Source: Chlamydiota bacterium
Lineage (GTDB): Bacteria > Auribacterota > Tritonobacteria > UBA1439
Reading direction: 5' to 3'
DNA: 32,875 bases
Assembly (NCBI GenBank): GCA_037133055.1
Contig: JBAXOY010000021.1
Span: 1-32,875, forward strand
In this document: in pieces, positions 2,515 to 32,875 of the stretch
How the letters are laid out: each line of letters starts with the position of its first letter
How positions within the stretch are numbered: the first letter of the stretch is position 1
Notes under the pieces: model-generated
What the model saw: only the letters and a program-made list of their open reading frames with translations
Databases searched by the model: none
What the model was told of the DNA's origin: nothing
Translations under genes and position numbers: made by a program

Positions 2515-2571
2515 ATCGTGCCCCCCCTGAAGTGGCCGCCGCGGATCTCCCCGCGCGCATCCTATTTTACA

Positions 2572-2600
2572 TTGGTGATGCCTCCCGCGCATAGTATACT
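2572..2600 (+). promoter_or_regulatory. Candidate sigma70-type promoter for the hydrolase gene
   Basis: TTGGTG-N17-TATACT in the divergent intergenic region. Confidence 0.4.
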
Positions 2601-2691
2601 CCATCGTCATTCGTGTGTGGTGACTTATGGGGGGACAACCCTTCGGGCCTGTCCCTTCACCGCCGTTCAACCGGACACGGAGAACCAGGTC

Positions 2692-6975: not shown

Positions 6976-7171
6976 CGCACAGCCCCCCCGTCGTTGGCAT
7001 CGAGCGGCGTCCCCGCATGAGAGCGCCCGATCCGGTGCAATTGTACTATGGATCCCTCGCGGGTGATAGGCCCATTACCCCGTGGCAAATACCGCTCCGT
7101 CATGAGAGAATAGCCGCGACCCTCGGAGCACGTTTACGCGCATTGTGGATGGGGGAAGACCGGGGCGCGCC

Positions 7172-7849
7172 ATGAATATTCTTCTTGTTGAAGACGATAT
7201 ACGGACCGCTCAGTTCATCACGAAGGGCCTCGCGCAGGCCGGCTTCGCCGTCCGGCACGCCGCCGACGGCGAGGAGGGGCTGCAGCGCGCCCTCATGGAA
7301 TCCTATGACGCGGCGGTGATCGACATCATGCTCCCCGGGCTGGACGGGCTGGAGCTGGTGCACCGGCTTCGCCGGAAAAAGTCGCTGACACCCGTCATCG
7401 TCCCCAGCGCAAAAGGTTCGGTCGACGACCGCATCAAGGGCCTCCAGGCGGGCGGCGACGACTACCTCGTCAAACCGTTTGCCTTCTCCGAACTGCTGAC
7501 GCGCATCCAGGCCCTCATCCGCAGGGCAAACCGTTCCCCGGAACCGACGGCCATTTCCGTGGGGCATCTCTCGATCGACCTCGTCAAGAGAAAGGTTTTC
7601 AGGGAAGAGAGGGAAATCGAGCTCCAGCCCCGCGAGTTCTCCCTCCTCGAGTACCTGATGCGGAACGCGGGGAGGGTCGTCTCGAAGACGATGATCATCG
7701 AGCACGTCTGGGACTATCAGTTCGACCCACACACCAACATCGTCGAGGCGAGGATGTGCCGCCTGCGCGACAAGGTCGACCGCCCCTTCGACCGGAAACT
7801 GATCCACACCGTCCGCGGCGTCGGCTATCTGCTCGAGGAAAAGACGTAA
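7172..7849 (+). CDS. OmpR/PhoB-family response regulator (CusR/CzcR-like)
   Basis: MNILLVEDD, DIMLP phosphoacceptor, DYLVKPF, winged-helix IHTVRGVGY. Confidence 0.95.
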   Translation: MNILLVEDDIRTAQFITKGLAQAGFAVRHAADGEEGLQRALMESYDAAVIDIMLPGLDGLELVHRLRRKKSLTPVIVPSAKGSVDDRIKGLQAGGDDYLVKPFAFSELLTRIQALIRRANRSPEPTAISVGHLSIDLVKRKVFREEREIELQPREFSLLEYLMRNAGRVVSKTMIIEHVWDYQFDPHTNIVEARMCRLRDKVDRPFDRKLIHTVRGVGYLLEEKT

Positions 7850-7850
7850 C

Positions 7851-9266
7851 ATGCTCCGCACCCTCACCGCGCGTCTCACCCTGTGGCACACGGCGATCTT
7901 CGCCGCATTGTCCGTGCTCCTTTTCGGGCTGGTCTGCCTCGCCCTGAAGACGAACCTCCGCGCCCGGACGGACGAGGAACTGAGGAACGAATCAGGCGAG
8001 TTCGAGAAGCTGTACCACCGGGACGGCATCGAGGCGCTGCGGTCCGAGTTCAGGACCGAGGCGGAATCGGAGGGGTTCAAGAGGGTGTTCTTCCGGTTTT
8101 TCTCCGCCGGGGGAGAGCAGCTCCTCGCATCCGACATGAGCGCATGGGGTGGACTCGACGCTCCTCCTCCCGCCGCGGCGTCCCTTCCGCCGGGGGAGTC
8201 GCTGCTGGCCACGGCCACCCTGCCCGGCCGTTCGCACGGCGCCCGCGTGATCTACAGAAAATCCGGCGGCGGGGGCCTCATCCAGATCGGCGTCACGACC
8301 GAGGACGACGACCACCTGCTCGCCCACATCCATAAGGTCTTCGGGGCGACGATCGCCGTCATGCTGTTCTTCGGCGGCGCCGCGGGGTATTTCATCGCGA
8401 GAAAGGCGATGCGCGGGGTCGAAGGGGTCACCGAAACGGCCGTCCGGATCGGGAGGGGCGATTTTACCCACCGTGTCCCTCTTGCCGGCAAGGGGCTGGA
8501 GATCGACAACCTCTCGCGGGCGTTCAACGACATGCTGGAGCGGATACAGGCGCTCGTGGAAGAGATCAAGGGGGTGACCGACACCATCGCCCACGACCTC
8601 CGGAGCCCGATCACCCGCATCCGCGGCATCGCCGAAACGACGCTGACCGGGGCGCAGCGCATGGACGACTACCGGCAGATGGCGGGGATCGTCATCGAGG
8701 AATGCGACCAGATGGTGCACATGATCAACACCATGCTGGAGATCGCCCAGGCCGATTCGGGGGTCGCGGTATTCGCGCGCGCGCCCGTCGATCTTGCGCG
8801 GCTCGCCGCGGATGCGTGCGACCTGTTTCACCCCGCCGCCGAAGACCGGAAGATACGCCTCGAAATCGACGGCACAGGGGCCCCCGTCTTCGCTCTCGGG
8901 GACAGCACCCGCCTCCAGCGCGTCATCGCGAATCTGCTCGATAATGCCGTCAAGTTCACGGCCCCCGGAGGGGAGGTCGTCCTGTCGATACGGGCGACTT
9001 CGACAGACGCCCTGCTCTCCCTGCGCGATTCCGGCGCCGGCATAGACGGGGGCGATATCTCCCGCATCTTCGACCGTTTCTACCGGGGCGACAGGAGCCG
9101 CTCCACCCCGGGCAACGGCCTCGGCCTCTCCTTCGCCCTGGCGATCGTACGGGCGCATGGGGGAGATATCGCCGTCGAAAGCAGCCCGGGGAAGGGAAGC
9201 ACGTTCACGGTGCGGCTTCCCCGGATTCCCACTCCGCCTGATTACCAAAAGGTAATCTCCCGGTAA
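7851..9266 (+). CDS. Sensor histidine kinase (2 TM, HAMP, HisKA, HATPase_c; CusS-like)
   Basis: H-box AHDLRSP, N-box NLLDNAVKF, DSGAGI, FDRFYR, GLGLS. Confidence 0.95.
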   Translation: MLRTLTARLTLWHTAIFAALSVLLFGLVCLALKTNLRARTDEELRNESGEFEKLYHRDGIEALRSEFRTEAESEGFKRVFFRFFSAGGEQLLASDMSAWGGLDAPPPAAASLPPGESLLATATLPGRSHGARVIYRKSGGGGLIQIGVTTEDDDHLLAHIHKVFGATIAVMLFFGGAAGYFIARKAMRGVEGVTETAVRIGRGDFTHRVPLAGKGLEIDNLSRAFNDMLERIQALVEEIKGVTDTIAHDLRSPITRIRGIAETTLTGAQRMDDYRQMAGIVIEECDQMVHMINTMLEIAQADSGVAVFARAPVDLARLAADACDLFHPAAEDRKIRLEIDGTGAPVFALGDSTRLQRVIANLLDNAVKFTAPGGEVVLSIRATSTDALLSLRDSGAGIDGGDISRIFDRFYRGDRSRSTPGNGLGLSFALAIVRAHGGDIAVESSPGKGSTFTVRLPRIPTPPDYQKVISR

Positions 9267-9294
9267 GACCCCGGTAACCTGCCTTTTCTATGCT
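9240..9294 (+). promoter_or_regulatory. Candidate response-regulator operator and promoter for the ArnT-like gene
   Basis: Palindrome GATTACC-N4-GGTAATC (9240-9257); GGTAA at 9251, 9262 and 9273 (exact 11-bp period); -10-like TATGCT at 9289-9294. Confidence 0.6.
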
Positions 9295-9338
9295 GTCCCC
9301 ATCGCCCGGGATCGCGGGACGGCGGCGGGGGAAGGCTC

Positions 9339-11000
9339 ATGCATCGTATTCGGGGGAACATCTTCGAGGCGGCGCCGGCGTGGGCGGATCCGCTTGTGCT
9401 CCTGCTGCTGTTCGGATTCTCCTTTTTTCACTCGCTCGGCGAGGCGCCGCTCCTCAACCCGGATGAAGGCCGCTACGCCGAAGTGCCGCGGGAGATGATC
9501 GAGTCCGGCGACTTCATCACGCCGCATCTGGACTACGTGGTCTATCTCGAAAAACCGCCGCTCTGCTACTGGCTGAACGCGCTTTCGTTCACGGCCTTCG
9601 GAGAGAACGAGTTCGGCGCCCGCTTTTTCAGCGCGCTCTCGGGCATCGCGGGCATCCTTCTCACCTGGCAGATCGGGCGAAGGGTGTTCGGGCGCAGGGC
9701 GGGAATGCTCTCCGCCCTGACCCTGGGGACCTCGATCGGCTATCTGGCCCAGGGGAGGCTCGCGATCATCGACATGCTCCTCACCTTCCTGCTCACCGCA
9801 TCCATCGGCTCCTTCCTTCTCGCGACAAGGAGCGGTGAGACGCACAAAGGCCTTTATTTCTATTCGTTCTTTATTTTCGCCGCCCTCGCGGTGCTCGCCA
9901 AGGGTCTCGTCGGAATCGTGCTGCCGGGGGCGATCATCGTGCTGTACCTGACGCTCGGCAGGCGCTGGAATCTCCTCGGGGAAATGAGGATCAGCGGGGG
10001 CATCACGTTCTTCCTCCTGATCGCCGCGCCATGGTTCGTCGCCGTGACGCTCAGGCATCCGGAGTTCCCGCGCTTCTTCTTCATCCACGAGCATTTCCAG
10101 CGCTATCTCACCTCAGTCCACCACCGTTACCAGCCGTTCTGGTTCTTTATCCCCGTGCTGGCGGGGCTCATCTTTCCATGGTCCTGCTTCCTCCCGGCCG
10201 CCGTCGCCGGGCTGCGGCGAAAGGGGGGAGGCGGGAACAGCGATGCCGGCCTTTTCCTGGCGATCTGGGCCGCCCTGATAGTCTGCTTCTTCTCCTGCTC
10301 AAAGTCCAAGCTCGTCCCCTATATCCTTCCCGCGCTCCCGCCGATCGCGCTGCTCATCGGGAAGACGCTTTCCGCGCTGCTGGAAATGGACTTTCGATCT
10401 CTCAGGAGAGAGGCATGGTTTCTGCACACCGGGCTCCTGAGCGGCGCTCTCGGAATCCTGCTCTATTCTCTCCTGGCGCCTAAACCGACGATCGGTCCCC
10501 TCGGATGCGCGGTGATCGCCGTCCTGCTCCTCTCGGAGGCGCTGCTCGTCGGGGCGTGCAGGCGCCGCTCAAGCGTAGCGGGGCTTTTCCTCAGTTTGTT
10601 CATAATGACCTACCTCCAGGGGATCATCGGGCCGCCGTTCGTCATCGCCGGCATGCAGCGGAAGAGATCCTGCAAGGGACTTGCGCGGCTGGTGGCGAAA
10701 AGCGCGAAGCCCGGGGACACGGTGGTCTGCTTCAGCTTTTACCCGCAGGATCTCCCCTTTTATCTGAAAAGGAGGGTCGCGCTCGTGGGGAACACGGGCG
10801 ATCTTGAATTCGGCAGCGCCCGCGGGGACCAGTCGTCCTGGTTCATCGAGCCGTCCGCGTTCACCGCACTCTGGAATTCGCCCCGGCGCGTCTTCGCCAT
10901 AATCGATATGGAGGACGCACAGGCGATCCGGAAGGCACTGGAAGCGCCGGTCAGGATATGCGGCCGCAAAGAGGACACGCTGGTCATAACCAATCGCTGA
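9339..11000 (+). CDS. arnT: ArnT/PMT-family (GT-C fold) lipid-carrier-dependent glycosyltransferase
   Basis: PDEGRYAEVPREM, YLEKPPLCYW, LAKG, FFFIHEHFQRY, SKSKLVPYILP; multiple TM helices. Confidence 0.88.
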   Translation: MHRIRGNIFEAAPAWADPLVLLLLFGFSFFHSLGEAPLLNPDEGRYAEVPREMIESGDFITPHLDYVVYLEKPPLCYWLNALSFTAFGENEFGARFFSALSGIAGILLTWQIGRRVFGRRAGMLSALTLGTSIGYLAQGRLAIIDMLLTFLLTASIGSFLLATRSGETHKGLYFYSFFIFAALAVLAKGLVGIVLPGAIIVLYLTLGRRWNLLGEMRISGGITFFLLIAAPWFVAVTLRHPEFPRFFFIHEHFQRYLTSVHHRYQPFWFFIPVLAGLIFPWSCFLPAAVAGLRRKGGGGNSDAGLFLAIWAALIVCFFSCSKSKLVPYILPALPPIALLIGKTLSALLEMDFRSLRREAWFLHTGLLSGALGILLYSLLAPKPTIGPLGCAVIAVLLLSEALLVGACRRRSSVAGLFLSLFIMTYLQGIIGPPFVIAGMQRKRSCKGLARLVAKSAKPGDTVVCFSFYPQDLPFYLKRRVALVGNTGDLEFGSARGDQSSWFIEPSAFTALWNSPRRVFAIIDMEDAQAIRKALEAPVRICGRKEDTLVITNR

Positions 11001-11029
11001 TTGCCCGGGGGCCCCGCGGGTCGTATACT
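11001..11029 (+). promoter_or_regulatory. Candidate sigma70 promoter for the efflux operon
   Basis: TTGCCC-N17-TATACT directly after the arnT stop codon. Confidence 0.5.
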
Positions 11030-11054
11030 TATGCGCACTGCGAGACGTGTCGCC

Positions 11055-12458
11055 ATGAGAATCGCGCTGCTCGTCCTCACGCTTGCCCTGGCGCCGGGAT
11101 GCGCCGTGTTCGAGCCCGGGCCCGTGCAGTCCCCGCCGTGGTCCGCCGGGTACGAGACCCGCTCGCTCGACAACCCGCGGCTGAAAGGGTTCATCGCCTC
11201 CTGCCTCGGGCGCGAGATCGACCCCTGGCCCCCGTCGACATGGGATTTGGACACCCTCACTCTGGCCGCCCTCTACTATAGTCCGGACCTCGACATCGCG
11301 CGGGCGCGCCTCGCCCAGGCGAAAGCCGGCGTGACCACCGCCTCGCGTATCCCGAACCCGACGGCCGACTCCCGCTATCAGTACGTCTCGAACCCCGACC
11401 CCGACACGCCCCGGAATGTCCTCGACTCCTCCGTGATGTTCCCCGTCGAGGCGCCGGGGAAGAGACGGAACCGTATCGCGCAGGCCGAGCACCTGGCGGA
11501 AGCGGCCCGCCTGAACATCGAGCGTGCGGCGTGGGAGGTGCGGGGCCGCGTGCGCGCCTCGGTCATCGACCTCTGCGAGGCGGCGGAGACGGAGGCCCTG
11601 CTACGGCGACAGTGCGTTCTCGAAGAGGAAAACATCGCGCGGGCCGAGCAGAGAGCGGACGGGGGAGAGCTTTCGCCCATCGAGCTTCCCGGGGCGCGTG
11701 CGTCGCTCGGCGAGGCCGAAATCGCGCTCTCGAAGGGGCGGCAGCAGGCCGTGGATGCGCGCCTCCGGCTCGCCGCAGCCGTCGGGGTCCCCCCCGCCGC
11801 GGTGGAGCCGATCAGCGTCGCCTGCGGCCCGGCGCCGCGCCGGAAGCGCGATCTGTCCCGCCCCGACCTGCAGAGACGCGCGCTCCGCGCACGCGCGGAC
11901 ATCCTGTCGTCCCTCGCGGACTATGCGGCGTGCCAATCGGCGCTCCAGAGCGAACTCGCCGCGCGGTTCCCCGACCTCCAGCTCGGGTCCGGCTTCGAGT
12001 GGGACCAGGGCGAGGAGAAGTGGGGCATCTCGGCATCCGTCCCCCTCCCGATCCTCGACCGCAACCAGGGGCCGATCGCCGAGGCCAGGGCCCGCATCGA
12101 AGAGTCGGCGGCGCGGTTCACCGCCCTTCAGTCGCAGGTGATCGGCGATATCGATCGGGCCCTCGCGGCGCGCGCCGCCGCGCAGCGCGAGATCGACGCG
12201 GCGGGCGCGCTCCTCGGGGAACGGGAACGACAGGTCGGTTTCCTGAAGGCCATGACCCGCCCCGGCGAGGTGCGGCAGATCGCCCTGTACCGCGCAGAGG
12301 GGCAGCGCATCGCGGCGGCGATCGCCATGCTCGGGGCGAAGGGGAAGGGGTTGCGCGCGGAGGGGGATCTCGAGGACGCGGTACAGCAGCCGCTCTTCTC
12401 CCCCGATGACGTTCCCTCCGTTCCTGAACTGCTGTCGCATTTCCAGGGGGAGCGCTAG
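11055..12458 (+). CDS. TolC/CzcC-family outer-membrane efflux lipoprotein
   Basis: Lipobox LAPGC; OEP-type motifs PDLDIARA, FPDLQLG, PILDRNQGPIAEA. Alternative start at 11031. Confidence 0.9.
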   Translation: MRIALLVLTLALAPGCAVFEPGPVQSPPWSAGYETRSLDNPRLKGFIASCLGREIDPWPPSTWDLDTLTLAALYYSPDLDIARARLAQAKAGVTTASRIPNPTADSRYQYVSNPDPDTPRNVLDSSVMFPVEAPGKRRNRIAQAEHLAEAARLNIERAAWEVRGRVRASVIDLCEAAETEALLRRQCVLEEENIARAEQRADGGELSPIELPGARASLGEAEIALSKGRQQAVDARLRLAAAVGVPPAAVEPISVACGPAPRRKRDLSRPDLQRRALRARADILSSLADYAACQSALQSELAARFPDLQLGSGFEWDQGEEKWGISASVPLPILDRNQGPIAEARARIEESAARFTALQSQVIGDIDRALAARAAAQREIDAAGALLGERERQVGFLKAMTRPGEVRQIALYRAEGQRIAAAIAMLGAKGKGLRAEGDLEDAVQQPLFSPDDVPSVPELLSHFQGER

Positions 12459-13304
12459 ATGAACTGCACGCGCGGGCGAATCGCGGCGGCGGTGGCGGGC
12501 GCGGCGCTCGCGGCCGTGCTGATCAGGGCCTGCGTTGCCCGGCGCGGCAGGGAGGCGCCCGATGAGGGCGCCGCCTCCCGGATCTCCGAGGCCGACGGGG
12601 TGAAGGTCATTACGCTCGACACGGTTGCCGTGAAGGGGAGCGGCATCGTCTCGGCGCCGCTCGCGGCTGCCGGCCACCGGAAGGAGAGAAACGTGTTCGG
12701 GGAGGTACTCGATCCCCGCCCCCTCCCCGCGCGCGCCGGGGATGATTTTCTCATCTCTTCCCCCCTTGAGGGGGAAGGTCAGCCTGCCCGCCATCGCTCT
12801 CGCTCAGGCGAGGCGGGCGGGGATGGGGGGGGCGCCGTGAAGGAGCGCGCCCTGTGCGTCAGGGTCTCGCTTTCCGATGCGGATGCCGCCTCAACGCCGC
12901 GATCTCCCGCGCGGGTCACGCTCCCCGACGGCACGGTCGTCGCCGCTGACCCGCTCGGCGCGCGAGCCCCCGGAGGGGGCCTCGTCTACCGCGCCCCGGC
13001 GGGGTCGTCACCGCCGGTTCCCGGGACGATGCTCCCCGTCGCCCTGCCGGCGGGGCCGGAAGAGGCCGGATACCTGATCCCGGATTCGGCGGTGGTCTGG
13101 ACCGACGGGAAGGCGTGGGTGTATATGCGGCGGGACGGAAATCGGTTCTCGCGCAGGGAGATCGCCGCGGACACCCGCGGCCGGGGGGGATGGTTCGTCG
13201 CGGGGGGGTTTTCGCCGGGAGAACAGGTCGTCGTGACCGGGGCGCAGCTCCTCCTCTCGGCCGAATTCCTCTCGCAGTATGCGCTCATAGAGATCGCGGA
13301 GTAA
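12459..13304 (+). CDS. Atypically short RND periplasmic adaptor (MFP) with a repeat-derived insertion
   Basis: Lies between TolC and RND genes; N-terminal anchor; C-terminal IPDSAVVWTDGKAWVY...GEQVVVTGAQLLLSAE; no obvious alpha-helical hairpin. Confidence 0.8.
   Translation: MNCTRGRIAAAVAGAALAAVLIRACVARRGREAPDEGAASRISEADGVKVITLDTVAVKGSGIVSAPLAAAGHRKERNVFGEVLDPRPLPARAGDDFLISSPLEGEGQPARHRSRSGEAGGDGGGAVKERALCVRVSLSDADAASTPRSPARVTLPDGTVVAADPLGARAPGGGLVYRAPAGSSPPVPGTMLPVALPAGPEEAGYLIPDSAVVWTDGKAWVYMRRDGNRFSRREIAADTRGRGGWFVAGGFSPGEQVVVTGAQLLLSAEFLSQYALIEIAE
12758..12833. repeat. Nested REP-like palindromes inside the MFP coding sequence
   Basis: TTCCCCC-CTTGA-GGGGGAA (12758-12776), then GCCCGCC-a-TCGC...GCGA-GGCGGGC (12786-12818), then GGGGATGGGGGG. 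Confidence 0.6.
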
Positions 13305-13305
13305 T

Positions 13306-16300
13306 ATGGACACCGCACATCGCGGAATCTTAAGCGCCATCGTCGACTCCTCTCTCCGCTTCCGCGGCGTCGTCATCGCCCTTGCGTGCATGTGGCTCGC
13401 CTACTGCGCCTACGCGCTCCTGCGGGCGAAGTACGACGTATTCCCCGAATTCGCGACGCCGCAGATCGACATCCAGACGAGTGCCCCCGGGCTCGCCCCC
13501 GAGCAGGTCGAAGCCCTGGTCACCCAGCCGATCGAAAACGCCGTCAACGGCGTGCCGGGACTTGAATCGCTCCGCTCCAACTCGATCCAGGGGCTTTCGG
13601 TGATCACGATGTACTTCTCCCCGCAGAGCGACATCTACCTTAACCGCCAGGTTATCGCCGAGCGCCTGACGGCGCTTGTGGGAAAACTGCCCGAGGGAAT
13701 CCCCGCCCCGGCCATGGTGCCGCTCACCTCGTCGACCGGCGACCTGTTGACGATCGGCCTCACCTCGAACACGCGCACGCTGATGGAGCTCAGGACGCTT
13801 GCCGACTGGACGGTCAAACCGCGCATCCTGGCGGCCCCCGGCGTCGCCAAGGTCGCGATCTTCGGCGGCCAGGTGAAGCAGTTCCAAATCCAGCCGCGCC
13901 TCGACCGGATGAGGTTGTACAACCTGTCCATGGACGACCTGCTGGCGGCGGCGCGAAAGGCCACGGGCGTCAGGGGGGCGGGCTTCATCGATACCCCGAA
14001 CCAGCACCTGATTCTCCAGACCGAGGGGCAGTCGCTCACCGCCGCGGAGCTCGCGCGGATCACCATCGTCGCCGGGAAGGACGCGGGCGCGCCGATGAGC
14101 ATAACCCTCGGGGACGTCGCCCGCGTCGCCGAGGCCCCCGAGCCGCCCATCAGCGCGGCATCGGTCATGGGGAAGGAGGGGGTCATCCTCAACGTCTGGG
14201 TCCAGTTCGGCGCAAACACACTGGAGGCGACGGGGGGTGTTGAACGGGCGATGGAAGAGCTCTCCCCCATGCTCAGGTCCGAGGGCGTGGTGGTTCATCC
14301 GAGGCTTTTCCGGGCCGCGAATTTCATCGAGACGGCGATGCACCGCCTGAAAATCTCGATCTGCATCGGCGCGGCGCTCGTGGTGGTGATATTGTTCCTT
14401 TTCCTGGCCAACCTCCGGACCGCATCCATTTCCGTCACCGCCATCCCCCTCTCCCTCCTGACGGCGGTGACGGTTCTTGAGTATCTCGGTCACAGTCTGA
14501 ACATCATGACGCTGGGGGGACTTGCCATCGCCATAGGCGTGGTGGTGGACGATGCCGTCATCAACGTGGAAAACATCCTGAGAAGGCTGAGGGAGAACCG
14601 CCATATCGAGAAGCCGCGCCCCGTATCCCGCGTGATCTTCGACGCGACCATGGAGGTGCAGGGGGCGGTCGTGTACGCGACGTTCGCGGTGGCGCTGGTC
14701 TTCGTGCCCGTGCTCACCATGTCCGGCCTCGCGGGAAGGCTCTTCTCGCCGCTCGGCATCGCCTATATCCTTGCCATACTCTTCTCCCTGCTCGTTGCGA
14801 TCACCGTGACTCCCGTCATGTGTTTACTGCTGCTGGGGAACCGGGATCTGGATAAAACAGAACCGCCCCTGGTGCGGTGGTCGAAGGGGAAGTATCGCCT
14901 GATCCTCCTGAGAGTCGAGCGCTCGCACCGCATGGTCATCGCCTCCGCGGGGATCGGTTCGATCGCGGGCGCCGCGGCGCTTTTCCTCCTCGGGGGGGAA
15001 TTCCTGCCCACGCTGCGGGAAGGGCATTTCCTGGTCCACTTGACCGCCGCCCCCGGGACCTCCATCGAGCAGTCGATCGAGATCGGGCGGCAGGCTACGC
15101 GCGCCCTGCTCGAGACGCCGTGCGTGGCGACGGTGGCCCAGCGCGTGGGGCGCGCCGAGGTGGACGACATCTTCGGGACGCACTCCAGCGAACTCGAGGT
15201 GGACCTGAAGCCGCTTAGCGGCGAGGCGGCGGAATCCGCGGAGGAGGATGTCCGGAAGGCGCTCTCGACGCTGGTCGGGGTGAACTTTGTCGTGAATACG
15301 TTCCTGACGGAACGGATCGAGGAAACGCTCTCCGGCTACACGGCCTCCGTCGTGATCAACATCTTCGGCAATGACCTCTCGGTGCTCGACGGGAAGGCGA
15401 AGGAGGTGGTCAGAGAAGTGAGCGCCATCCCCGGCGCCGCCGACGTCCAGGCGCAGTCGCCCCCCGGAACCCCCCAGCTTTTTATTCGTCTCCGACACGA
15501 GGAGTGTGCGCGATGGGGGTTCGACCCCGTGGATATCCTCGAGGTCATCCAGACGGCGTACCAGGGCGCAACCGTCGGCCAGGTGTACGACGGCAACCGG
15601 GTGTTCGACGTCCTGGTGATCCTCGACCCGCGGGACCGGAACAGCGTCAACGGGTTGGGGGACCTGGCCCTGCGCAGCCCGACGGGCAGCTTTGTCCGTT
15701 TGGGCCGGCTTGCCGACATCAAGGAAATGCCCGGCCGCTATACGATCCAGCACGACGCCGCCCGGCGCGTCCAGGTGGTGACCTGCAATGTGTCCGAACG
15801 GAATGTCCGTTCTTTTGTCGAGGAAGCGAAAAAGAGGATCGCCGCCTCCGTCAAGATGCCGGAGGGAACCTATGTCGAGTTCGGGGGGACGGCGGAAGCG
15901 GAGGCGAGATCAAGAAGCGACCTGATACTCCACTCGCTGCTGGCAGGCATAGGGATCATCCTCCTGCTCTCCATCGTGTTCGCCAACGGCCGCAGCCTCG
16001 TCCTGATCCTGGCGAACCTTCCGTTCTGCTTCGTGGGGGGGGTGCTGGCGCTCGTCTGCTCCGGGAACGGGCTTTCGATCGGCTCGCTGGTCGGTTTCGT
16101 GTCTCTCTTCGGGATCACGCTGCGCAACTCGATTATGATGATCTCCCACTACGAGCACCTTGTCTCGTGCGAGGGGCAGAGCTGGGGGCTCGAAACCGCG
16201 ATTCGGGGGGCATCAGAGCGGCTCACGCCCATTCTCATGACCGCCCTCGTCACCGCGATGGGGCTTCTGCCGATCGCGCTCGCGAGCGGCGCGCCCGGGC

Positions 16301-16428
16301 TCGAGATCGAGGGGCCAATGGCGATCGTGATCCTCGGCGGCCTCGCCACCTCGACCGCGTTGAACCTCCTGGTGCTGCCCGCCCTCGCCCTCCGCTTCGG
16401 CCGGTTTGATCGAAAACGCGCCGTCTGA
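13306..16428 (+). CDS. CusA/CzcA-family RND efflux permease
   Basis: 1040 aa; DVFPEFA, APGLAPEQVE, TM4 GVVVDDAVINVEN, ERLTPILMTA, PMAIVILGGL. Confidence 0.95.
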   Translation: MDTAHRGILSAIVDSSLRFRGVVIALACMWLAYCAYALLRAKYDVFPEFATPQIDIQTSAPGLAPEQVEALVTQPIENAVNGVPGLESLRSNSIQGLSVITMYFSPQSDIYLNRQVIAERLTALVGKLPEGIPAPAMVPLTSSTGDLLTIGLTSNTRTLMELRTLADWTVKPRILAAPGVAKVAIFGGQVKQFQIQPRLDRMRLYNLSMDDLLAAARKATGVRGAGFIDTPNQHLILQTEGQSLTAAELARITIVAGKDAGAPMSITLGDVARVAEAPEPPISAASVMGKEGVILNVWVQFGANTLEATGGVERAMEELSPMLRSEGVVVHPRLFRAANFIETAMHRLKISICIGAALVVVILFLFLANLRTASISVTAIPLSLLTAVTVLEYLGHSLNIMTLGGLAIAIGVVVDDAVINVENILRRLRENRHIEKPRPVSRVIFDATMEVQGAVVYATFAVALVFVPVLTMSGLAGRLFSPLGIAYILAILFSLLVAITVTPVMCLLLLGNRDLDKTEPPLVRWSKGKYRLILLRVERSHRMVIASAGIGSIAGAAALFLLGGEFLPTLREGHFLVHLTAAPGTSIEQSIEIGRQATRALLETPCVATVAQRVGRAEVDDIFGTHSSELEVDLKPLSGEAAESAEEDVRKALSTLVGVNFVVNTFLTERIEETLSGYTASVVINIFGNDLSVLDGKAKEVVREVSAIPGAADVQAQSPPGTPQLFIRLRHEECARWGFDPVDILEVIQTAYQGATVGQVYDGNRVFDVLVILDPRDRNSVNGLGDLALRSPTGSFVRLGRLADIKEMPGRYTIQHDAARRVQVVTCNVSERNVRSFVEEAKKRIAASVKMPEGTYVEFGGTAEAEARSRSDLILHSLLAGIGIILLLSIVFANGRSLVLILANLPFCFVGGVLALVCSGNGLSIGSLVGFVSLFGITLRNSIMMISHYEHLVSCEGQSWGLETAIRGASERLTPILMTALVTAMGLLPIALASGAPGLEIEGPMAIVILGGLATSTALNLLVLPALALRFGRFDRKRAV

Positions 16429-20964: not shown

Positions 20965-21699
20965 CTATTTCCCGACTTTTCGCCCCCCGAACAGCGCCAG
21001 CTCGAGCACCCTGAAATAGCAGTCCGTGTCCGCGAAGCCGATTTCCCTGAGCCACCGGCACTGCTCGTCAAGCGGGGCGAGGACATTCTCCCTCTTGTCG
21101 GGGCGGGCGCGGTACTCCTCCTCTATTTCCTTTCGCGATCTCGCCGACCCGGAGGACCGGCCGAACCGGAAGAGATGATCCACAAAATAGTCGGTGAACA
21201 CCTCCTCGATCTCCGCCGTCGGAGATTTCACATGGTCAAGGTTCAGAAAAAGGCCGCCGGTCGCCAGCATGTCGTATATCTCGCGGTACAGGGCCCTCTT
21301 CCGCTCGTGCGGCTGGTGGTGGATGGCAAACCCCGAAACGACGACATCGAACGGGCGCCCCTCCCCCACCGCCTTGACCCATTTCTTCGAGCCGAAGTCC
21401 GCCTTGACGACGCGCGCCCGCGCCACTCCTTTGAGCTTCTCCCGCGCGGCCTTGAGCATCGGGTCCGAAAAATCCGCGAACCAGACGCGCGCCTCCGGGA
21501 ACCGTTCGAGCACCGTCCTGCCGAGTATCCCGTCTCCGCACCCGAGGTCCAGCACCCGACCGGGAGCGGGCCGCCATGCATCGATGAGCGTGCCGATGAT
21601 CTCGATCTGAAGGGCGGCGGCGGGGATCGCCCCCCTCCTCCCCTTCAGGAACGCCTCCACCGCCTCCGCGGTCTTCCAATGGCTTCCGCGCGGGCTCAT
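20965..21699 (-). CDS. Class I SAM-dependent methyltransferase
   Basis: VLDLGCGDG, DFSDPML, FDVVVSGFAIHH. Confidence 0.92.
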   Translation of the reverse strand: MSPRGSHWKTAEAVEAFLKGRRGAIPAAALQIEIIGTLIDAWRPAPGRVLDLGCGDGILGRTVLERFPEARVWFADFSDPMLKAAREKLKGVARARVVKADFGSKKWVKAVGEGRPFDVVVSGFAIHHQPHERKRALYREIYDMLATGGLFLNLDHVKSPTAEIEEVFTDYFVDHLFRFGRSSGSARSRKEIEEEYRARPDKRENVLAPLDEQCRWLREIGFADTDCYFRVLELALFGGRKVGK

Positions 21700-22031
21700 C
21701 TCATCTCTCCGTGGGGTATCCCCGTGGCGAGAACAGATTTCCGCCGCGCACAGGGCATACGGCTCCTCGACGAGCCTATCAGCATCAGTTTCTCCTGCCT
21801 GCCAAGCCGTTTGATCCGCGCCTCGCGCCTCTGGGCCGCGGGCCTACCGCGTGACCTTTCGCAATAGACAAGCCTCACGGGCCGGCGGGAGCGCGTGTAG
21901 CGGGAGGCCATGCCGGAGTCGTGCGCCCGGATCCGGCGGTGGAGGTCGTTCGTGACGCCGGTGTAGAGCGTCCCGTCGCGGCACCGGAGGATGTAGACAT
22001 GCCATGGGGCCGATTTCGCCCCCTTTTTCAT
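21696..22031 (-). CDS. GIY-YIG nuclease-family protein (YhbQ/YazA-like)
   Basis: WHVYILRCRDGTLYTGVTNDLHRRIRAH, SRYTRSRRPV, REARIK; ATGA overlap with the methyltransferase. Start uncertain. Confidence 0.88.
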   Translation of the reverse strand: MKKGAKSAPWHVYILRCRDGTLYTGVTNDLHRRIRAHDSGMASRYTRSRRPVRLVYCERSRGRPAAQRREARIKRLGRQEKLMLIGSSRSRMPCARRKSVLATGIPHGEMR

Positions 22032-22086
22032 GCGCCTTCCATTGGTTGATGTGACCCGCGCGCCGGCGCGGGCGACCGTGCTCCGA

Positions 22087-23595
22087 TCATCGCGGGTACC
22101 CGCACTCATCCGCCCGCGACACCGGGATGGCCGAGCTGACGCCGCGCAGCCATCCCAGGTGGGCGCAAAACTGCGGGCTCCTGAACGCCGATCTGATGAG
22201 TTTCTTCACGTAGAAATAGAGGAGTATCTTCCTCAACGGATAGATCATTCTGAGGGTGCAGGCCCCCTTGACGGCGGTGCGTACGGATTCCCTGAAGGAA
22301 TAGAACTCCCGGTACATGTCGAGGATCAGATGCTGCAGCCGGAGCGGCGTAAAATGATTCGGTTTCAGCACCACGTGCTGCCCGTCGTACAGGGAGAAAT
22401 CCTCCGTCAGCACCCTCCCCGACCGTTTCATCGTTTCGGCGAACTTCGTGCCCGCCAGGGGGGTGGGCGTCATGTACTGGACGCTGTCGAGATTGCGCCT
22501 GGCCCACCGGTCCGTTTCCGCGAGGTTGCGCTCCGTGTCTCCGTCCCCGCCGATCATCATCATGCCGTGGACCCACATCCCGGCCTCCCGGAACAATCTC
22601 GGGGCCATCATGTTCCTCTTCACGTCCACTTTCTTGTTCAGGGCTTTGAGGGTCTCCTCGCTCAGCGACTCGATGCCCACGCAGACTATGGAAAAACCCG
22701 CCTCCCGCATGAGGCCCATCAATTCCTTGTCGAAGGCGGCGGAAATGCACAACTGGCAGAGATACAGGATGCGGTTGAGCCGCCTGTCGATTATCATGCG
22801 CAGAAGTTGTTTCGTCTCTTCCGGCTTGCCGGCGAAATTGTCGTCGTTGAAAAAAATATACTTCACCGTCTCGCCCTTCATGCGCTCGAGGTCGGCGATA
22901 ATGGACTCGTTGGACCTCCTCCGGTATACGCTCCCGTATAACGACGAGACGGAACAGAAGTCGCACTTGAAGGGGCATCCCCGCGAGGTGGAGAGGGGCC
23001 ACACCCACACCCCCTTCTTCGTGCCGTCGTCATAGCAGGGGGCCGGCAGATTCGAGAGCTCGGTCTCGGTCAGCGGCTCGACAGGCGGTTCGTGCACGAT
23101 GCCGGAGCCGTTTTTATAACTGATGCCCCCCGCTCCGTCGGGCGCGCCGTTGCCGAGCAGCGCCTCCATCAGGCGCGGGAGCGTGTTGTCTCCCTCCTGC
23201 CTCACCACGACATCGGCCCATTCCAGGCACTCTTCCGGGCGATAGGTGGCGTGGGACCCCCCGATGATGATCGTTCCCTTCGGATTAAGTTTCTTGTAAA
23301 GGAGTCCCAGTTCCCTCGACTGAGGGATGGTGCGGCTGATGGCGGAGAGGAGAAGGAAATCGGAGCCGGCAATCCGCTCGATATCGGCGGCGGTCAAACG
23401 CCCGGGGGGAGCATTAAAGGAGGGGTTGATGCTGACCAGGTTCGTGAACCCTTCCCTCAGCAGTATCGCATGCAGGAGCGGGATGGCCCGCGCGGGAAGC
23501 TTGAAGTAGCAGAACACATCATCTACCGGCTCGCCATCCAGCCGCCCGAACGATGTCGGCGGCAATTCAACAAGCGTTATCGCCCGATTTTTCAC
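22087..23595 (-). CDS. B12-binding-domain radical SAM protein
   Basis: IGGSHAT, VVRQEGD, SRGCPFKCDFC (CX3CX2C), FNDDNF, GIES, TPLAGT. Confidence 0.93.
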   Translation of the reverse strand: MKNRAITLVELPPTSFGRLDGEPVDDVFCYFKLPARAIPLLHAILLREGFTNLVSINPSFNAPPGRLTAADIERIAGSDFLLLSAISRTIPQSRELGLLYKKLNPKGTIIIGGSHATYRPEECLEWADVVVRQEGDNTLPRLMEALLGNGAPDGAGGISYKNGSGIVHEPPVEPLTETELSNLPAPCYDDGTKKGVWVWPLSTSRGCPFKCDFCSVSSLYGSVYRRRSNESIIADLERMKGETVKYIFFNDDNFAGKPEETKQLLRMIIDRRLNRILYLCQLCISAAFDKELMGLMREAGFSIVCVGIESLSEETLKALNKKVDVKRNMMAPRLFREAGMWVHGMMMIGGDGDTERNLAETDRWARRNLDSVQYMTPTPLAGTKFAETMKRSGRVLTEDFSLYDGQHVVLKPNHFTPLRLQHLILDMYREFYSFRESVRTAVKGACTLRMIYPLRKILLYFYVKKLIRSAFRSPQFCAHLGWLRGVSSAIPVSRADECGYPR

Positions 23596-29850: not shown

Positions 29851-30246
29851 CTACGCGCCGGGGAGGTGCTTCTCCAGTTCCCTGCGGATGCTTGGCGGCA
29901 GCGGGGCTGGTCTTTTGTGCGCAAGGTCGACGTGCACGAGGACGACCTTCCCCGTCGCGCGGAGACTGCCGTCCTGCCACGCCTCCTGCGCCACATCGAA
30001 GGATGATTTTCCGATGCGGGAGACGAAGGACCTCACCTCGACGTCCCGCCCGTAAAAGAGCTCCCCTTTGTACTCGACCTCGAGCCTTGCCATGACCAGG
30101 TTCCATTTCTTCAGGTCGAGGCCCGGGTTGAATATCCGGTAGAGCGGGTTCCGCGCCCGCTCGAACCAGAGCGGGAGCGCCGTGTTGGTGATGTGCCCCA
30201 TCCCGTCCGCATCGCCGAATCGCGGTTCTATCGTCTTCGTATACAT
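29851..30246 (-). CDS. Hot-dog-fold acyl-CoA thioesterase (4HBT/YbgC-like)
   Basis: PRFGDADGMGHITN, WFERAR, IGKSSF. Confidence 0.92.
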   Translation of the reverse strand: MYTKTIEPRFGDADGMGHITNTALPLWFERARNPLYRIFNPGLDLKKWNLVMARLEVEYKGELFYGRDVEVRSFVSRIGKSSFDVAQEAWQDGSLRATGKVVLVHVDLAHKRPAPLPPSIRRELEKHLPGA

Positions 30247-30320
30247 GGAGTTAGCGCCCCTTATCCTAATCTCATAGGGTAGACTTTAGTCCGCCCTATG
30301 GCAATGATAGCATCATTACT

Positions 30321-30349
30321 TTGCCGCCCCCCACCCTCTTTGTTATACT
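30321..30349 (+). promoter_or_regulatory. Sigma70 promoter for tRNA-Asn
   Basis: TTGCCG-N17-TATACT with extended -10 TG at 30341-30342. Confidence 0.7.
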
Positions 30350-30407
30350 AATGCTGTTCTTTGACATCCGCTTTTTACTGGAAACGAGTAACGAGCAACT
30401 GTTGTAT

Positions 30408-30862
30408 TCCCCGGTAGCTCAGTTGGTAGAGCAGGTGGCTGTCAACTTTCGCCTCCGGCGAAAGTTGATCTCGAGCACGCCGTCAGGCGAGCGAGAGATC
30501 TTCACTTTGAACCGGAGTCGAATCAAATGGCAGCCCCACGTGGAAACGCGTGGGTGAACAGCGGGCTAATTCAGGGAACTCTAACCCGAAGGGTTAGACC
30601 TCGAGCGCAGCGAGAGGCCTTTCCCTTCGGTACGACAATCCTGAGCGAAGCCTTGGCTCTTCGAGCCTCGGAACGTGCAGAGACTATACACCCGCTACCT
30701 AACTCCGGCGCCGCGCCTTTTTTTGTTTTCCGTAGGGCAGCCTTCAGGCTGCCCGCGGAAGGTCGGCGTCGGACACGGTAAAGAGAGAGTCCAGGCCTGG
30801 TGGAAACATCGGGGGTACCTGTAACCACCGTGCCGCAGGTTCGAGTCCTGCCCGGGGAGCCA
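30408..30862 (+). tRNA. tRNA-Asn(GUU) interrupted by a group I intron; exons 30408-30442 and 30822-30862
   Basis: Joined exons give a 76-nt cloverleaf: acceptor TCCCCGG/CCGGGGA, D arm GCTC/GAGC, anticodon stem GGTGG/CCACC with loop CT-GT|T-AA, T arm GCAGG-TTCGAGT-CCTGC, discriminator G and encoded CCA. Confidence 0.96.
30443..30821 (+). ncRNA. Group I intron (379 nt, no homing ORF, IC3-like)
   Basis: 5' exon ends in U and intron ends in G. IGS GCAGCC (30530-30535) pairs with exon GGCUGU including a U-G pair. P2 has a GAAA loop. P3 AGCGGG/CCCGCT; P AATTCAGGGAA (30568); Q AATCCTGAGC (30637); R GTGCAGAGACTATA (30675); S AAGAGAGAGTCC (30781); P9 with GAAA loop. Confidence 0.95.
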
Positions 30863-30903
30863 AAATAGAAAAGGCCCTCACATGAGGGCCTTTTCTATTT
30901 TGG
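30860..30903. terminator. Bidirectional intrinsic terminator after tRNA-Asn
   Basis: Perfect 21-bp inverted repeat CCAAAATAGAAAAGGCCCTCA-ca-TGAGGGCCTTTTCTATTTTGG. Confidence 0.88.
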
Positions 30904-30979
30904 GATTGAGCGAGGGCTGCGCACGCAGCCCGAGTCGAAATCCCTTCCGGGGCTGAAAGCGTCACATCTGTTATTCTTC

Positions 30980-31666
30980 CTATTCCAACACGGCAATAAT
31001 GTCTTTCTCTATAATTTCATCCAATCCCCGCCTTATCTTCTTCTGCCACTTATCGGGAATGGATTTAAATACGCGGTGGAGTATATCAGCCTCACCCTTG
31101 TCAATCAGTGCCCTTAGAATTCCAATCGCGGCATTTTTATCTTTCACTGCTTTATCTTCTTTCGCTCTTCGCTGAAATATAATCAACTTATGCAATGCAA
31201 AATTGGCCGGGTGAGGCACCGTTAGATAAAAACCTTCTATCCTGACCTTTATCGTATTATCGGTTAGAAAATTGAGAAATCGTAATGCGGTGGCGCTTAT
31301 CCCCAAGCCAGGAAGATTGTAGGGCTTATCCATGCCCCTGCCTTTTTCAGGCACGAGGAATTCCAGTATCAGGTCCGCATGAGCCAGTTTCATATAGCCC
31401 TTTTCTGCTTCCATTACTTTTACATAGCCAAGATCCTTGAGCATAAGAGGTATATTGACCTCAGTACGCAGCGTATGGGGGGCAGCAATAAGAAAATCCA
31501 TATCCCTCGTTTTTAGCGCGGTGTGGTCTATAAACGGCCGGGGAGCGAAATATTCCCTATAAAAGACGACACACCAGCTGCCGATAAGGATAAAGTCATT
31601 CAGGAGATGGGCCTTGTTGAACCTCCTGAGAACTTCATAACACAGATCATATTGCTTCTTTTCCAC
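30980..31666 (-). CDS. GSU2403-like nucleotidyltransferase-fold protein
   Basis: LIGSW, TRDMDF, EFLVP, VPHPANFALHKL, KAVKD. Confidence 0.8.
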   Translation of the reverse strand: MEKKQYDLCYEVLRRFNKAHLLNDFILIGSWCVVFYREYFAPRPFIDHTALKTRDMDFLIAAPHTLRTEVNIPLMLKDLGYVKVMEAEKGYMKLAHADLILEFLVPEKGRGMDKPYNLPGLGISATALRFLNFLTDNTIKVRIEGFYLTVPHPANFALHKLIIFQRRAKEDKAVKDKNAAIGILRALIDKGEADILHRVFKSIPDKWQKKIRRGLDEIIEKDIIAVLE

Positions 31667-31967
31667 GCAACGAACTCCTCAAGAACTTCACTTGTTTCTT
31701 GACCTGTGACAACAACTTCCGATATCTCGCCCTCATAAGCTTGGCATCCATATATCTCTTCTTTTCTTCCTCCGATACCTTGCCTTTATACTTGTACCCG
31801 ACTTTTGCGCCGACCCTTTTTACCAAATAGAAATACTCATGCCCCCCGATTTTTTTTGCAACAAGGCACCCCTGGGGCAGCTTGCGCAAGGCATTCTCGT
31901 ATTCCCTTTTCATCCGAAGAGAATTCTCCAACTCCTCAGCCAGGACACCTTTTATCACGCCTTTCAT
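31647..31967 (-). CDS. Small basic protein co-encoded with the nucleotidyltransferase
   Basis: 106 aa, K/R-rich, LPQGCLVAKKIGGHEYFYL; overlaps the NTase start by 20 bp. Confidence 0.8.
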   Translation of the reverse strand: MKGVIKGVLAEELENSLRMKREYENALRKLPQGCLVAKKIGGHEYFYLVKRVGAKVGYKYKGKVSEEEKKRYMDAKLMRARYRKLLSQVKKQVKFLRSSLRGKEAI

Positions 31968-32301
31968 ACACTCTCCGATTACCCAACATCACTATAAGCA
32001 GTGTAGCATGTTAGGTAATAGCGGTCAAAACTAATACTACCCAACATACTGATTATCTCGCCTCGATGTTGGATAACTGTCACTGCCCGGCACTCGGGAG
32101 CCCCGCTTCCCGACAGAAATACAATCTGTTTTCCGGCAACCACGCCGACACATATTTTGCTACCATGCGGCGATAGTCGTGAGTTCGATTCATGGAATAG
32201 GGATTGGCTATGTCCCTGAAGTTGTAAAGGATTTCTATCAATGAAAGACAACGCTCGAGATATATCATTATGGGTCAATAAAGAGGAATTCGCACTCTTG
32301 G

Positions 32302-32838
32302 ATGAAGCCTGTCTATTCGGAGCAGATGCTGACGAGAACCTTGATAATCCCGAAAAAAAAGGGCGGATATCGCATCTATTTTACATATGAAGAACTCGAC
32401 GATTTGGCCGGTTTCGTCGCAGCGGGCGCTAATCATGAAACGTCGCGCCGCAATCAGGAACGACGGGATAATCTATACGCTAAAATTGACAGCCTTCTGA
32501 AGTTCAATGACCCCACCAATTATCCGCCATGCTACCAAATTCAACAAGTTCAGCAGTGTACTCTGAGATATTTCATTTTTGACATCTGGATTGAGAGCGG
32601 AAAGGGCTATAAAGCCTCCTCAAGAGTCTTACGACGCATTCAAATCGCCGAGACGAAGAGCCTTTATAACTTCGCGAAGGTCATCACGCATGCCTTCGGC
32701 TTCTATTTCGACCACTGTTTCGGATTCTACGATAATTTCAAACGATATCACGATTCAAAAAAGGCCTACGAAGTATTCGTGGACATCGGGGAAGATCCTT
32801 TATCTCCCAACACTAAAGGCGTTGTAGCGCCCCGCTAA
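32302..32838 (+). pseudogene. pRiA4b ORF-3/TnpR-like domain protein, probably C-terminally truncated
   Basis: RRIQI....SLYNFAKVI..AFGF.FDH.FGF resembles the domain start. The expected downstream YDF/FDYGDxW motif is missing and the ORF ends within an IS-like end. Confidence 0.55.
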
Positions 32839-32875
32839 TTATGAGACAGATTTGACGGATAAATGGGTAACACTT
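32823..32875. mobile_element. Possible IS3-family terminal inverted repeat (element runs off the window)
   Basis: TGTAGCGCCCCGCTAATTATGAGACAG resembles the TG...GCCCC...GACA ends of IS3-family elements and coincides with the apparent truncation. No transposase is visible. Confidence 0.45.

Follow-up and report, generated by a model that had tools for sequence, protein, structure and literature searches.

The question raised by this locus is whether a bacterial tRNA gene that is broken within its anticodon may still yield a working tRNA, and, if so, by what kind of intron it is broken and from where that intron came. The window under study, the whole stretch of 32,875 nt that was analysed, belongs to an assembly (G000) of 2.99 Mb, 64% GC and 92% completeness that encodes LpxC together with TolC/RND and ArnT family proteins. 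Genome size (3.0 Mb), base composition and the presence of LpxC all suit the diderm, non-CPR host that had been suspected from the window. The intron is read here, with high confidence, as an intact, nuclease-less group I intron of a tRNA-Asn 35/36 family that is very probably functional and that we infer to be catalytic.

A tRNA-Asn gene split within its anticodon

The tRNA-Asn(GUU) gene lies on the forward strand and is split within the anticodon at exact coordinates. The 5′ exon (30408–30442, 35 nt) supplies tRNA positions 1–35 and ends in U35, the base at −1, as indicated by ARAGORN, by intact orthologues and by a check of the register, and the 3′ exon (30822–30862, 41 nt, also on the forward strand) supplies positions 36–76, including discriminator G73 and an encoded CCA, and is identical in G001, G002, G003 and G007. 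Between them lies an intron of 379 nt with 59% GC (30443–30821), the removal of which, as originally predicted, restores a canonical 76-nt tRNA, called tRNA-Asn(gtt) by ARAGORN. The joined exons have the GUU anticodon, a cloverleaf, G73 and U1-A72. Both G73 and U1-A72 are identity elements of tRNA-Asn, and U1-A72 is in addition an identity element for GatCAB. The gene is uninterrupted in two genomes of the same genus (G001 and G002) and in one of the same family (G007); exon 1 differs from these intact orthologues at one base and exon 2 at none, and the region upstream is syntenic with G002. The splice points are thus fixed by the intact gene in G001 and G002.

A gene of this form was expected to escape tRNA finders, and ARAGORN indeed reports 0 tRNAs in the raw window (32,875 nt); tRNAscan-SE, for its part, is stated in the accessible portion of one source not to detect group I introns (PMC8450103). 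When run in intron mode (-i), ARAGORN labels 30408–30862 tRNA-Asp(gtc), which lends some colour to an alternative in which the gene is a tRNA-Asp(GUC) whose intron sits one base downstream, or in which the contig is chimeric. The tRNA-Asp register was rejected, as its intron would follow a C at −1 and terminate in U, whereas 35/36 is the only one of eight registers in the anticodon loop that has both U at −1 and a terminal G; in addition, the intact orthologues read GUU, and a separate tRNA-Asp resides on C100. A chimeric contig is contradicted by single RNA contigs that span both exon-intron borders with 0 differences, and the alternative as a whole is given practically no weight. The finding thereby corrects the annotation, as such genomes would be scored as having no tRNA-Asn or be given a false tRNA-Asp.

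Upstream of the gene, a consensus match points to a candidate sigma-70-like promoter with an extended −10 (30321–30349, forward strand), the promoter scan returning one site where 0.3 was expected, and a similar −10 region precedes the gene in G002 and G003. Downstream, a long palindrome (30860–30903), as read from the sequence, is likely a bidirectional intrinsic terminator; the terminator scan returned none, this palindrome not having been scored by it.

A count of tRNA-Asn copies bears on how far the host would depend on splicing, and no real tRNA-Asn besides the split gene is present in the assembly (92% complete), as the original prediction had considered possible. A second ARAGORN “tRNA-Asn”, on C31, was discarded: the structure is 91 nt long, its acceptor and D stems contain mismatches, and a BLAST comparison with the exons gave no match. 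ARAGORN also found no Ile-GAU, Ala-UGC, Lys-UUU or Arg-UCU tRNAs in the assembly, and with these expected tRNAs missing at 92% completeness a second, intact tRNA-Asn is possible. Nonetheless, as the split gene is the sole real copy assembled, splicing is probably essential to the host. GatB is present in the genome and no AsnRS scores over the cut-off there, so that tRNA-Asn is probably charged by the route of aspartylation followed by amidation.

Core, fold and transcripts of the intron

The covariance search that had been proposed as a check places an RF00028 match at 30509–30813 (55 bits, E 2.5e-12, model positions 1–253), which is the sole match in the genome and lies 5 bits above the gathering score of 50. 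The region folds at z = −7.3 relative to 100 shuffles, and P1 to P9 as well as P9.0 are all pairable. On the strength of this score, the helices and the ORF searches, the whole of 30443–30821 (forward strand) is assigned to a group I intron with a compact, Azoarcus/IC3-like core and no endonuclease ORF, core features and subgroup criteria being taken from the portions available of several sources (PMC3984707, PMC11835236, PMC3494683, PMC2275092). The helices were examined against a comparative set of 49 same-site tRNA-Asn 35/36 introns obtained by automatic extraction, across which compensatory pairs occur in P2, P4, P6 and P9.

The intron opens with an 87-nt loop, L1 or the P1 extension (30443–30529), which contains stable hairpins. 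It is followed by a predicted internal guide sequence (30530–30535) that pairs with exon bases 30437–30442 to form P1, with G30530 as the wobble partner of U30442, which refines the U-G splice-site pair of the original prediction; in the nested fold the outermost P1 pair has a probability of 0.57 and the other five of 0.99–1.0. A perfect hairpin just 3′ of the splice site (30443–30467) was considered as P1 and set aside, as U35 would then lie opposite A and the hairpin has a pair probability of at most 0.04; in the modelled fold it belongs to L1. The U-G pair is found at the splice site in 47 of the 49 introns, the two misses (L081 and L159) being extraction errors, and the guide of L159 was confirmed by eye. 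P2 (30535–30554) is capped by a GAAA tetraloop (30543–30546), and its six inner pairs are kept, with several pair types, in 45–48 of the 49.

Within 30560–30696, pairing defines P3 (30560–30565/30691–30696), the strands of which co-vary among compact introns, P4 (30571–30576/30639–30644), whose pairs persist, by way of compensatory types, in 46–49 of the 49 introns, P5, which bears an extension of 45 nt (30586–30630), and P6 (30645–30647/30674–30676). P7 (30680–30685/30788–30792), supported by RF00028 and by pairing, has a bulged A30681 and a guanosine-binding pair G30682-C30791; five of its pairs are invariant in 49 of 49 introns, which is not independent evidence since the rows were chosen on these motifs, and its last position is A-G here as against A-U or U-A in 47 of 49. 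An extended P8 (30697–30779) contains a motif resembling the 11-nt receptor (30698–30703/30774–30778), as judged from its likeness to the receptor consensus, and the intron closes (30793–30821) with a three-base-pair P9.0 (30793–30795/30818–30820), a P9 with a GAAA tetraloop (30803–30806) and terminal G30821. P6, P7 and P9.0 have pair probabilities below 0.05 in the nested fold, which is expected of P7 there as it is one half of a pseudoknot, although such a fold lends these helices no support. P3, P4, the P/Q/R/S elements and the terminal G named in the original prediction could thus all be located (P4 and P7 formed; G30821).

This arrangement resembles the Azoarcus intron in its insertion into the anticodon loop, its U-G splice site, its compact core, and a P3′ that begins five bases after P7 with no P7.1/P7.2 insert, P5 being one extended hairpin with no P5abc domain. 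A further likeness lies in the GAAA loops of both P2 and P9, accompanied by two candidate motifs resembling the 11-nt receptor, in P8 and in P5, which depart from the consensus at 2 and 4 of 11 positions, respectively. In the Azoarcus intron the tetraloop-receptor contacts are assigned to L2/P8 and L9/P5. It differs from the present intron in that it occupies tRNA-Ile 36/37 and measures 205 nt, whereas the present one occupies tRNA-Asn 35/36 and reaches 379 nt with extensions in L1, P5 and P8. Two tetraloop-receptor contacts of this kind are described for the Azoarcus ribozyme in the part of PMC2275092 that was covered, Azoarcus intron data being given in the covered part of PMC13168695, and IC3 introns are described as having no P5a–d in that of PMC11835236. 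From the core and the receptor-like motifs in P5 and P8, the design would be Azoarcus/IC3-like. The same motifs and compact core are shared with the IC3 introns of cyanobacterial trnL(UAA), tRNA-fMet and tRNA-Arg(CCU), four copies of which, taken from G066 and G068, are 55–58% identical over 189 core columns; these differ in the tRNA and the site that they occupy.

Taken together, these features allow a model for expression of the gene. This model proposes that the pre-tRNA folds P1 between the end of the exon and the guide (30530–30535), whereupon free guanosine bound in P7 would attack after U35; the terminal G30821 would then take the same P7 pocket, and the 3′-OH of the exon would attack the 3′ splice site. 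Joining of the exons would restore the GUU anticodon loop, the product being the cell's tRNA-Asn, and splicing as exact as this would render the intron nearly neutral and so allow it to persist. No new mechanism is contained in the finding.

Transcripts bear on this model in part. Six metatranscriptome runs share words with the locus, and the best four of the six, which represent a single study and no more than two samples, were analysed; the shares of the other two, X5 and X6, are 0.12 and 0.05. Contigs from these RNA libraries, which cannot show strand, ends or level, match 30410–30857, 30425–30855, 30435–30713 and 30559–30815 with 0 differences, and RNA depth is zero at 30200–30385 and at 30882–31100 in all four runs. 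Transcription of the unspliced precursor is weakly shown by these contigs. A bolder and speculative reading is that the unspliced RNA, which seems to end near the ends of the mature tRNA, hints at splicing as the rate-limiting step for the only tRNA-Asn of the cell. In the contigs of the best four of the six runs, no spliced 30442–30822 junction of this gene was found. Libraries of this type often fail to retain short, modified tRNAs, and the missing junction therefore neither shows nor excludes splicing. RNA joints 30434→30836 and 30852→30414 were considered as splicing and rejected, as they derive from tRNAs of other organisms; likewise, contigs in which 30442 is followed by another 3′ exon (three differences, other flanks) represent tRNAs of other organisms and not splicing of this gene.

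That only unspliced RNA was seen would also suit an intron that is dead or barely active, in which case the gene would be a pseudogene and a working tRNA-Asn would lie in sequence missing from the assembly; misfolding could result from the four large insertions in the periphery, and the assembly does miss other tRNAs. However, a pseudogene is hard to reconcile with exons that differ from intact orthologues at a single base, with core helices that are all pairable, with first 52 core columns identical to those of G003, a genome of another genus at 80% RpoB identity, and with the lack of an intact copy in 13 of the 14 genomes of the host phylum in which the intron occurs. A dead intron is therefore considered improbable, and a functional intron is the reading carried forward.

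Distribution and descent of the intron

The original prediction proposed that the case extends the host range of an intron reported in Patescibacteria or else reflects lateral transfer. A notable extension of the range is not supported, as 14 of 79 genomes in the host phylum, along with many groups outside the CPR, have an intron at this position. The figure of 14 comprises 16 pattern matches less two false ones (an intact tRNA-Thr in G046, no tRNA in G043); an intact tRNA-Asn gene is found in 47 of the 79, as a single hit in 45 of these 47, neither form is found in 19 of the 79, and both occur together only in G075. The split and intact genes of G075 (C19, C29) have different 3′ exons, and one of them may be foreign or a contaminant. 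Beyond the phylum, a pattern scan of GTDB contigs returned at least 120 loci, 40 of which had short flanks that would hide longer introns; among the 120 listed, to which all counts refer, 36 are full tRNA-Asn genes split at 35/36. By record title, these 36 comprise 8 CPR, 7 Cyanobacteria, 4 Acidobacteriota, 3 Omnitrophota, 2 Eubacteriales, 2 Pacearchaeota and 2 other bacterial records, with one each from Deltaproteobacteria, Binatia, the PVC group, Gammaproteobacteria, Elusimicrobia, Methylomirabilia, Nitrospira and Pirellulales. The intron is an ordinary member of a widespread tRNA-Asn 35/36 family, and it adds to the evidence that introns at this site are pan-bacterial and not a speciality of the CPR. 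Two architectures coexist at the site: 12 of the 49 introns are compact between P7 and P3′, as here, and 37 have a longer insert, which elsewhere marks another intron class, yet both sorts fall on one side of the tree relative to introns of other tRNAs.

Nakagawa et al. reportedly described in 2025 a novel group I intron site in Patescibacteria, said to be tRNA-Asn 35/36, and the 8 CPR records among the loci listed do carry an intron at this site. These differ from the present case in that its host is not a member of the CPR and its intron falls apart from theirs in the trees. Williams 2020 (bioRxiv 10.1101/2020.01.27.920355), in the portion of that text available, raised the classes of intron-split bacterial tRNA genes from 4 to 21 from genomes of January 2017; its classes share the register of U(−1) and G(omega) within the anticodon loop, and the present site would be Asn.4Ug in its numbering. 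The text covered by the literature search, which for Williams 2020 was the main text, held no description of a tRNA-Asn 35/36 intron, and the site is probably already in print.

Several other loci merit mention in their own right. Introns at tRNA-Asn 35/36 occur on archaeal-labelled contigs, namely two Candidatus Pacearchaeota records (L041 and L068) and G069:C13:57943–58170, the last with 83 bits to RF00028. All 39 archaeal group I introns were placed in rRNA in the covered part of one source (PMC6125680), and one archaeal tRNA case was set aside as misbinned in that of Williams 2020 (bioRxiv 10.1101/2020.01.27.920355). In a Sphingomonas cremea record (L031), tRNA-Lys(UUU) is interrupted at 35/36 by a group I-like intron of 220 nt, the genome search with RF00028 returning 0 matches. 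Lastly, an HNH-bearing tRNA-Asn intron gene (L158, G072:C18) adjoins a gene for a large serine recombinase, and the split tRNA may double as an integration site.

Descent was examined, as had been suggested, in trees that included introns of other tRNAs and of the CPR, built from 54 rows and 189 columns or from 52 rows and 127 motif-anchored columns, the mis-extracted L081 and L159 having been dropped from the latter. The 49 Asn introns lie on one side of a branch that separates them from trnL(UAA), fMet and Arg(CCU) introns (95/93 on 189 columns, 90/78 on 127). The intron is sister to that of G003, a member of the same family (94/88), and on 127 columns the introns of G003, G039 and G010, all from the host phylum, form a group with it (82/92). 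A clade uniting it with the 8 CPR introns was rejected by AU tests of hypotheses framed after a first tree had been seen (p 0.0019 on 189 columns, 0.008 on 127). A recent lateral transfer from a Patescibacteria/CPR donor might be entertained on account of the patchy presence of the intron (1 of 3 genomes in the genus and 2 of 5 in the family, counting those in which the gene was found) and of CPR genomes that bear the same-site intron, some with an HNH. However, the nearest rows are introns of the host phylum, and the intron holds no HNH, nor do 9 intron HNHs find a tblastn match in the genome. In view of these results, a CPR donor is very unlikely, and the lateral transfer of the original prediction, insofar as it came from the CPR, is not upheld. 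A single clade for all introns of the host phylum was rejected on 189 columns (p 0.0006) and not on 127 (p 0.126); as the stricter 127-column alignment gives the latter value, two separate origins within the phylum are not claimed.

The model is thus completed by proposing that the intron lineage is resident in the host phylum, where it would be gained or lost patchily. An alternate scenario, possible but held with less than even confidence, provides for recent homing within the phylum, for example from a G003-like source with a nuclease acting in trans or since lost, rather than ancestral inheritance with loss in G001, G002 and G007. Such homing would account for the absence of the intron from the closer relatives G001 and G002 (RpoB identity 89–90%) and its presence in the more distant G003 (80%), for the identity of 52 of 52 columns to G003 at the 5′ core and of 90–96% at the 3′ core, and for low-GC downstream genes that are common to both genomes at 82%. 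However, overall core identity to G003 (79%, or 89% on anchored columns) is near the 86% of tmRNA between the same two genomes, and P5 and P6 are only 33% and 60% identical, all of which fits old shared ancestry. Residence in the phylum may reflect either an inherited intron that was lost several times or homing among members of the phylum, and gain or loss may have run in either direction. The host family offers matched intron-plus and intron-minus alleles that are useful for tests of homing and loss.

Host repeats in the peripheral helices and the remainder of the window

The intron is long for a member without a nuclease owing to its extensions in L1, P5 and P8. Two chance ORFs (84–85 aa) over the intron have no Pfam match, no HNH motif is present in it, and the intron HNHs of 9 relatives have no tblastn match in the genome at E 0.01. 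By comparison, 9 of the 49 same-site introns bear an HNH-like ORF, located in L1 in those inspected, and the one such ORF tested gave a Pfam HNH match with E 4.5e-4, just under the cut-off. It is proposed that relatives spread by means of the HNH nuclease in L1, and that the present copy, without a nuclease, would have gathered host repeats in its peripheral loops.

One such repeat, a GTAG-type, REP-like palindrome, lies inside P8 (30732–30754, forward strand). A pattern for its family gave 13 hits, which fall at 11 genomic loci, and none in the reversed control. In a separate count, a hairpin follows 23 of 559 GTAGGG sites as against 0.4–1.7% for five other leading tetramers, but three shuffled genomes also gave 3–10 hits. 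The random chance of a palindrome of this family in a given 379-nt stretch is about 0.0014, a figure that is post hoc and ignores avoidance of coding DNA. GTAG-type REPs consist of GTAG and a short palindrome, are dispersed in many copies, and have a cognate RAYT (Y1) transposase flanked by the same repeat. The present family is similar in its GTAG tetranucleotide, its GC-rich palindrome, its dispersal (11 loci) and the presence of Y1_Tnp in the genome, where eight Y1_Tnp (RAYT/IS200-like) genes lie on C4, C11, C17, C19, C20, C64, C88 and C175. It differs in sitting inside a ribozyme helix and in that none of these eight loci has a copy within 1.5 kb; with no RAYT gene flanked by the family, the palindrome is called REP-like and not REP. 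The Y1_Tnp gene on C17 is flanked by a second dispersed repeat family, distinct from that in P8.

Repeats also occupy the periphery of other introns at the site. The G003 intron has the P8 family of the present genome in its P6 and another GTAG palindrome in its P8; introns of family f11 have a different GTAG family in P6, for which three of the five genomes tested have 13–20 hits, G074 has 3, and G017 has no copy but that within the intron itself. Repeats are further found in P5 of G074 and G057 and in L1 of G039 and G075. In the present intron, L1 resembles a four-unit tandem hairpin repeat directly after tRNA-Ser (G000:C70, approximately 2400–2640), a likeness that is weak by BLAST (E 0.26–0.9), and a similar L1 unit is found in 6 of the 49 introns. 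As splicing would remove the intron in its entirety and extra hairpins would be tolerated in its peripheral helices, repeats could accumulate in L1, P5, P6 and P8, and it is tentatively suggested, at less than even confidence, that nuclease-less tRNA group I introns may repeatedly provide host REP-like palindromes with a safe place to land. The literature search found no paper on REP-like repeats within tRNA group I introns. The GC-rich, repeat-laden periphery provides a natural test of insertion tolerance in an Azoarcus-like ribozyme.

The remainder of the window yields minor observations. Downstream of the tRNA, GC drops to approximately 45% (30900–32875), possibly as the remnant of an island at the tRNA 3′ end; within this stretch, an NTP_transf_8 nucleotidyltransferase gene (30980–31666) overlaps a gene for 106 aa, with which it may form a toxin-antitoxin-like pair, a weak match resembles pRiA4 ORF3, and 30987–31700 matches G003:C186 at 82%. 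A stand-alone GIY-YIG domain gene (21696–22109, reverse strand) overlaps its neighbours; a link between it and the L1 repeat was discarded, as no such repeat was seen by eye in its flanks. Two long ORFs on the reverse strand, of at least 1249 aa (1–3747) and 730 aa (4783–6975), have no NCBIfam match, the second also having no Pfam match. Finally, a single run on the forward strand (7145–16428) encodes a response regulator, a heavy-metal-type sensor kinase, an ArnT-like glycosyltransferase, an outer-membrane factor, an adaptor and a CusA/CzcA-like RND pump.
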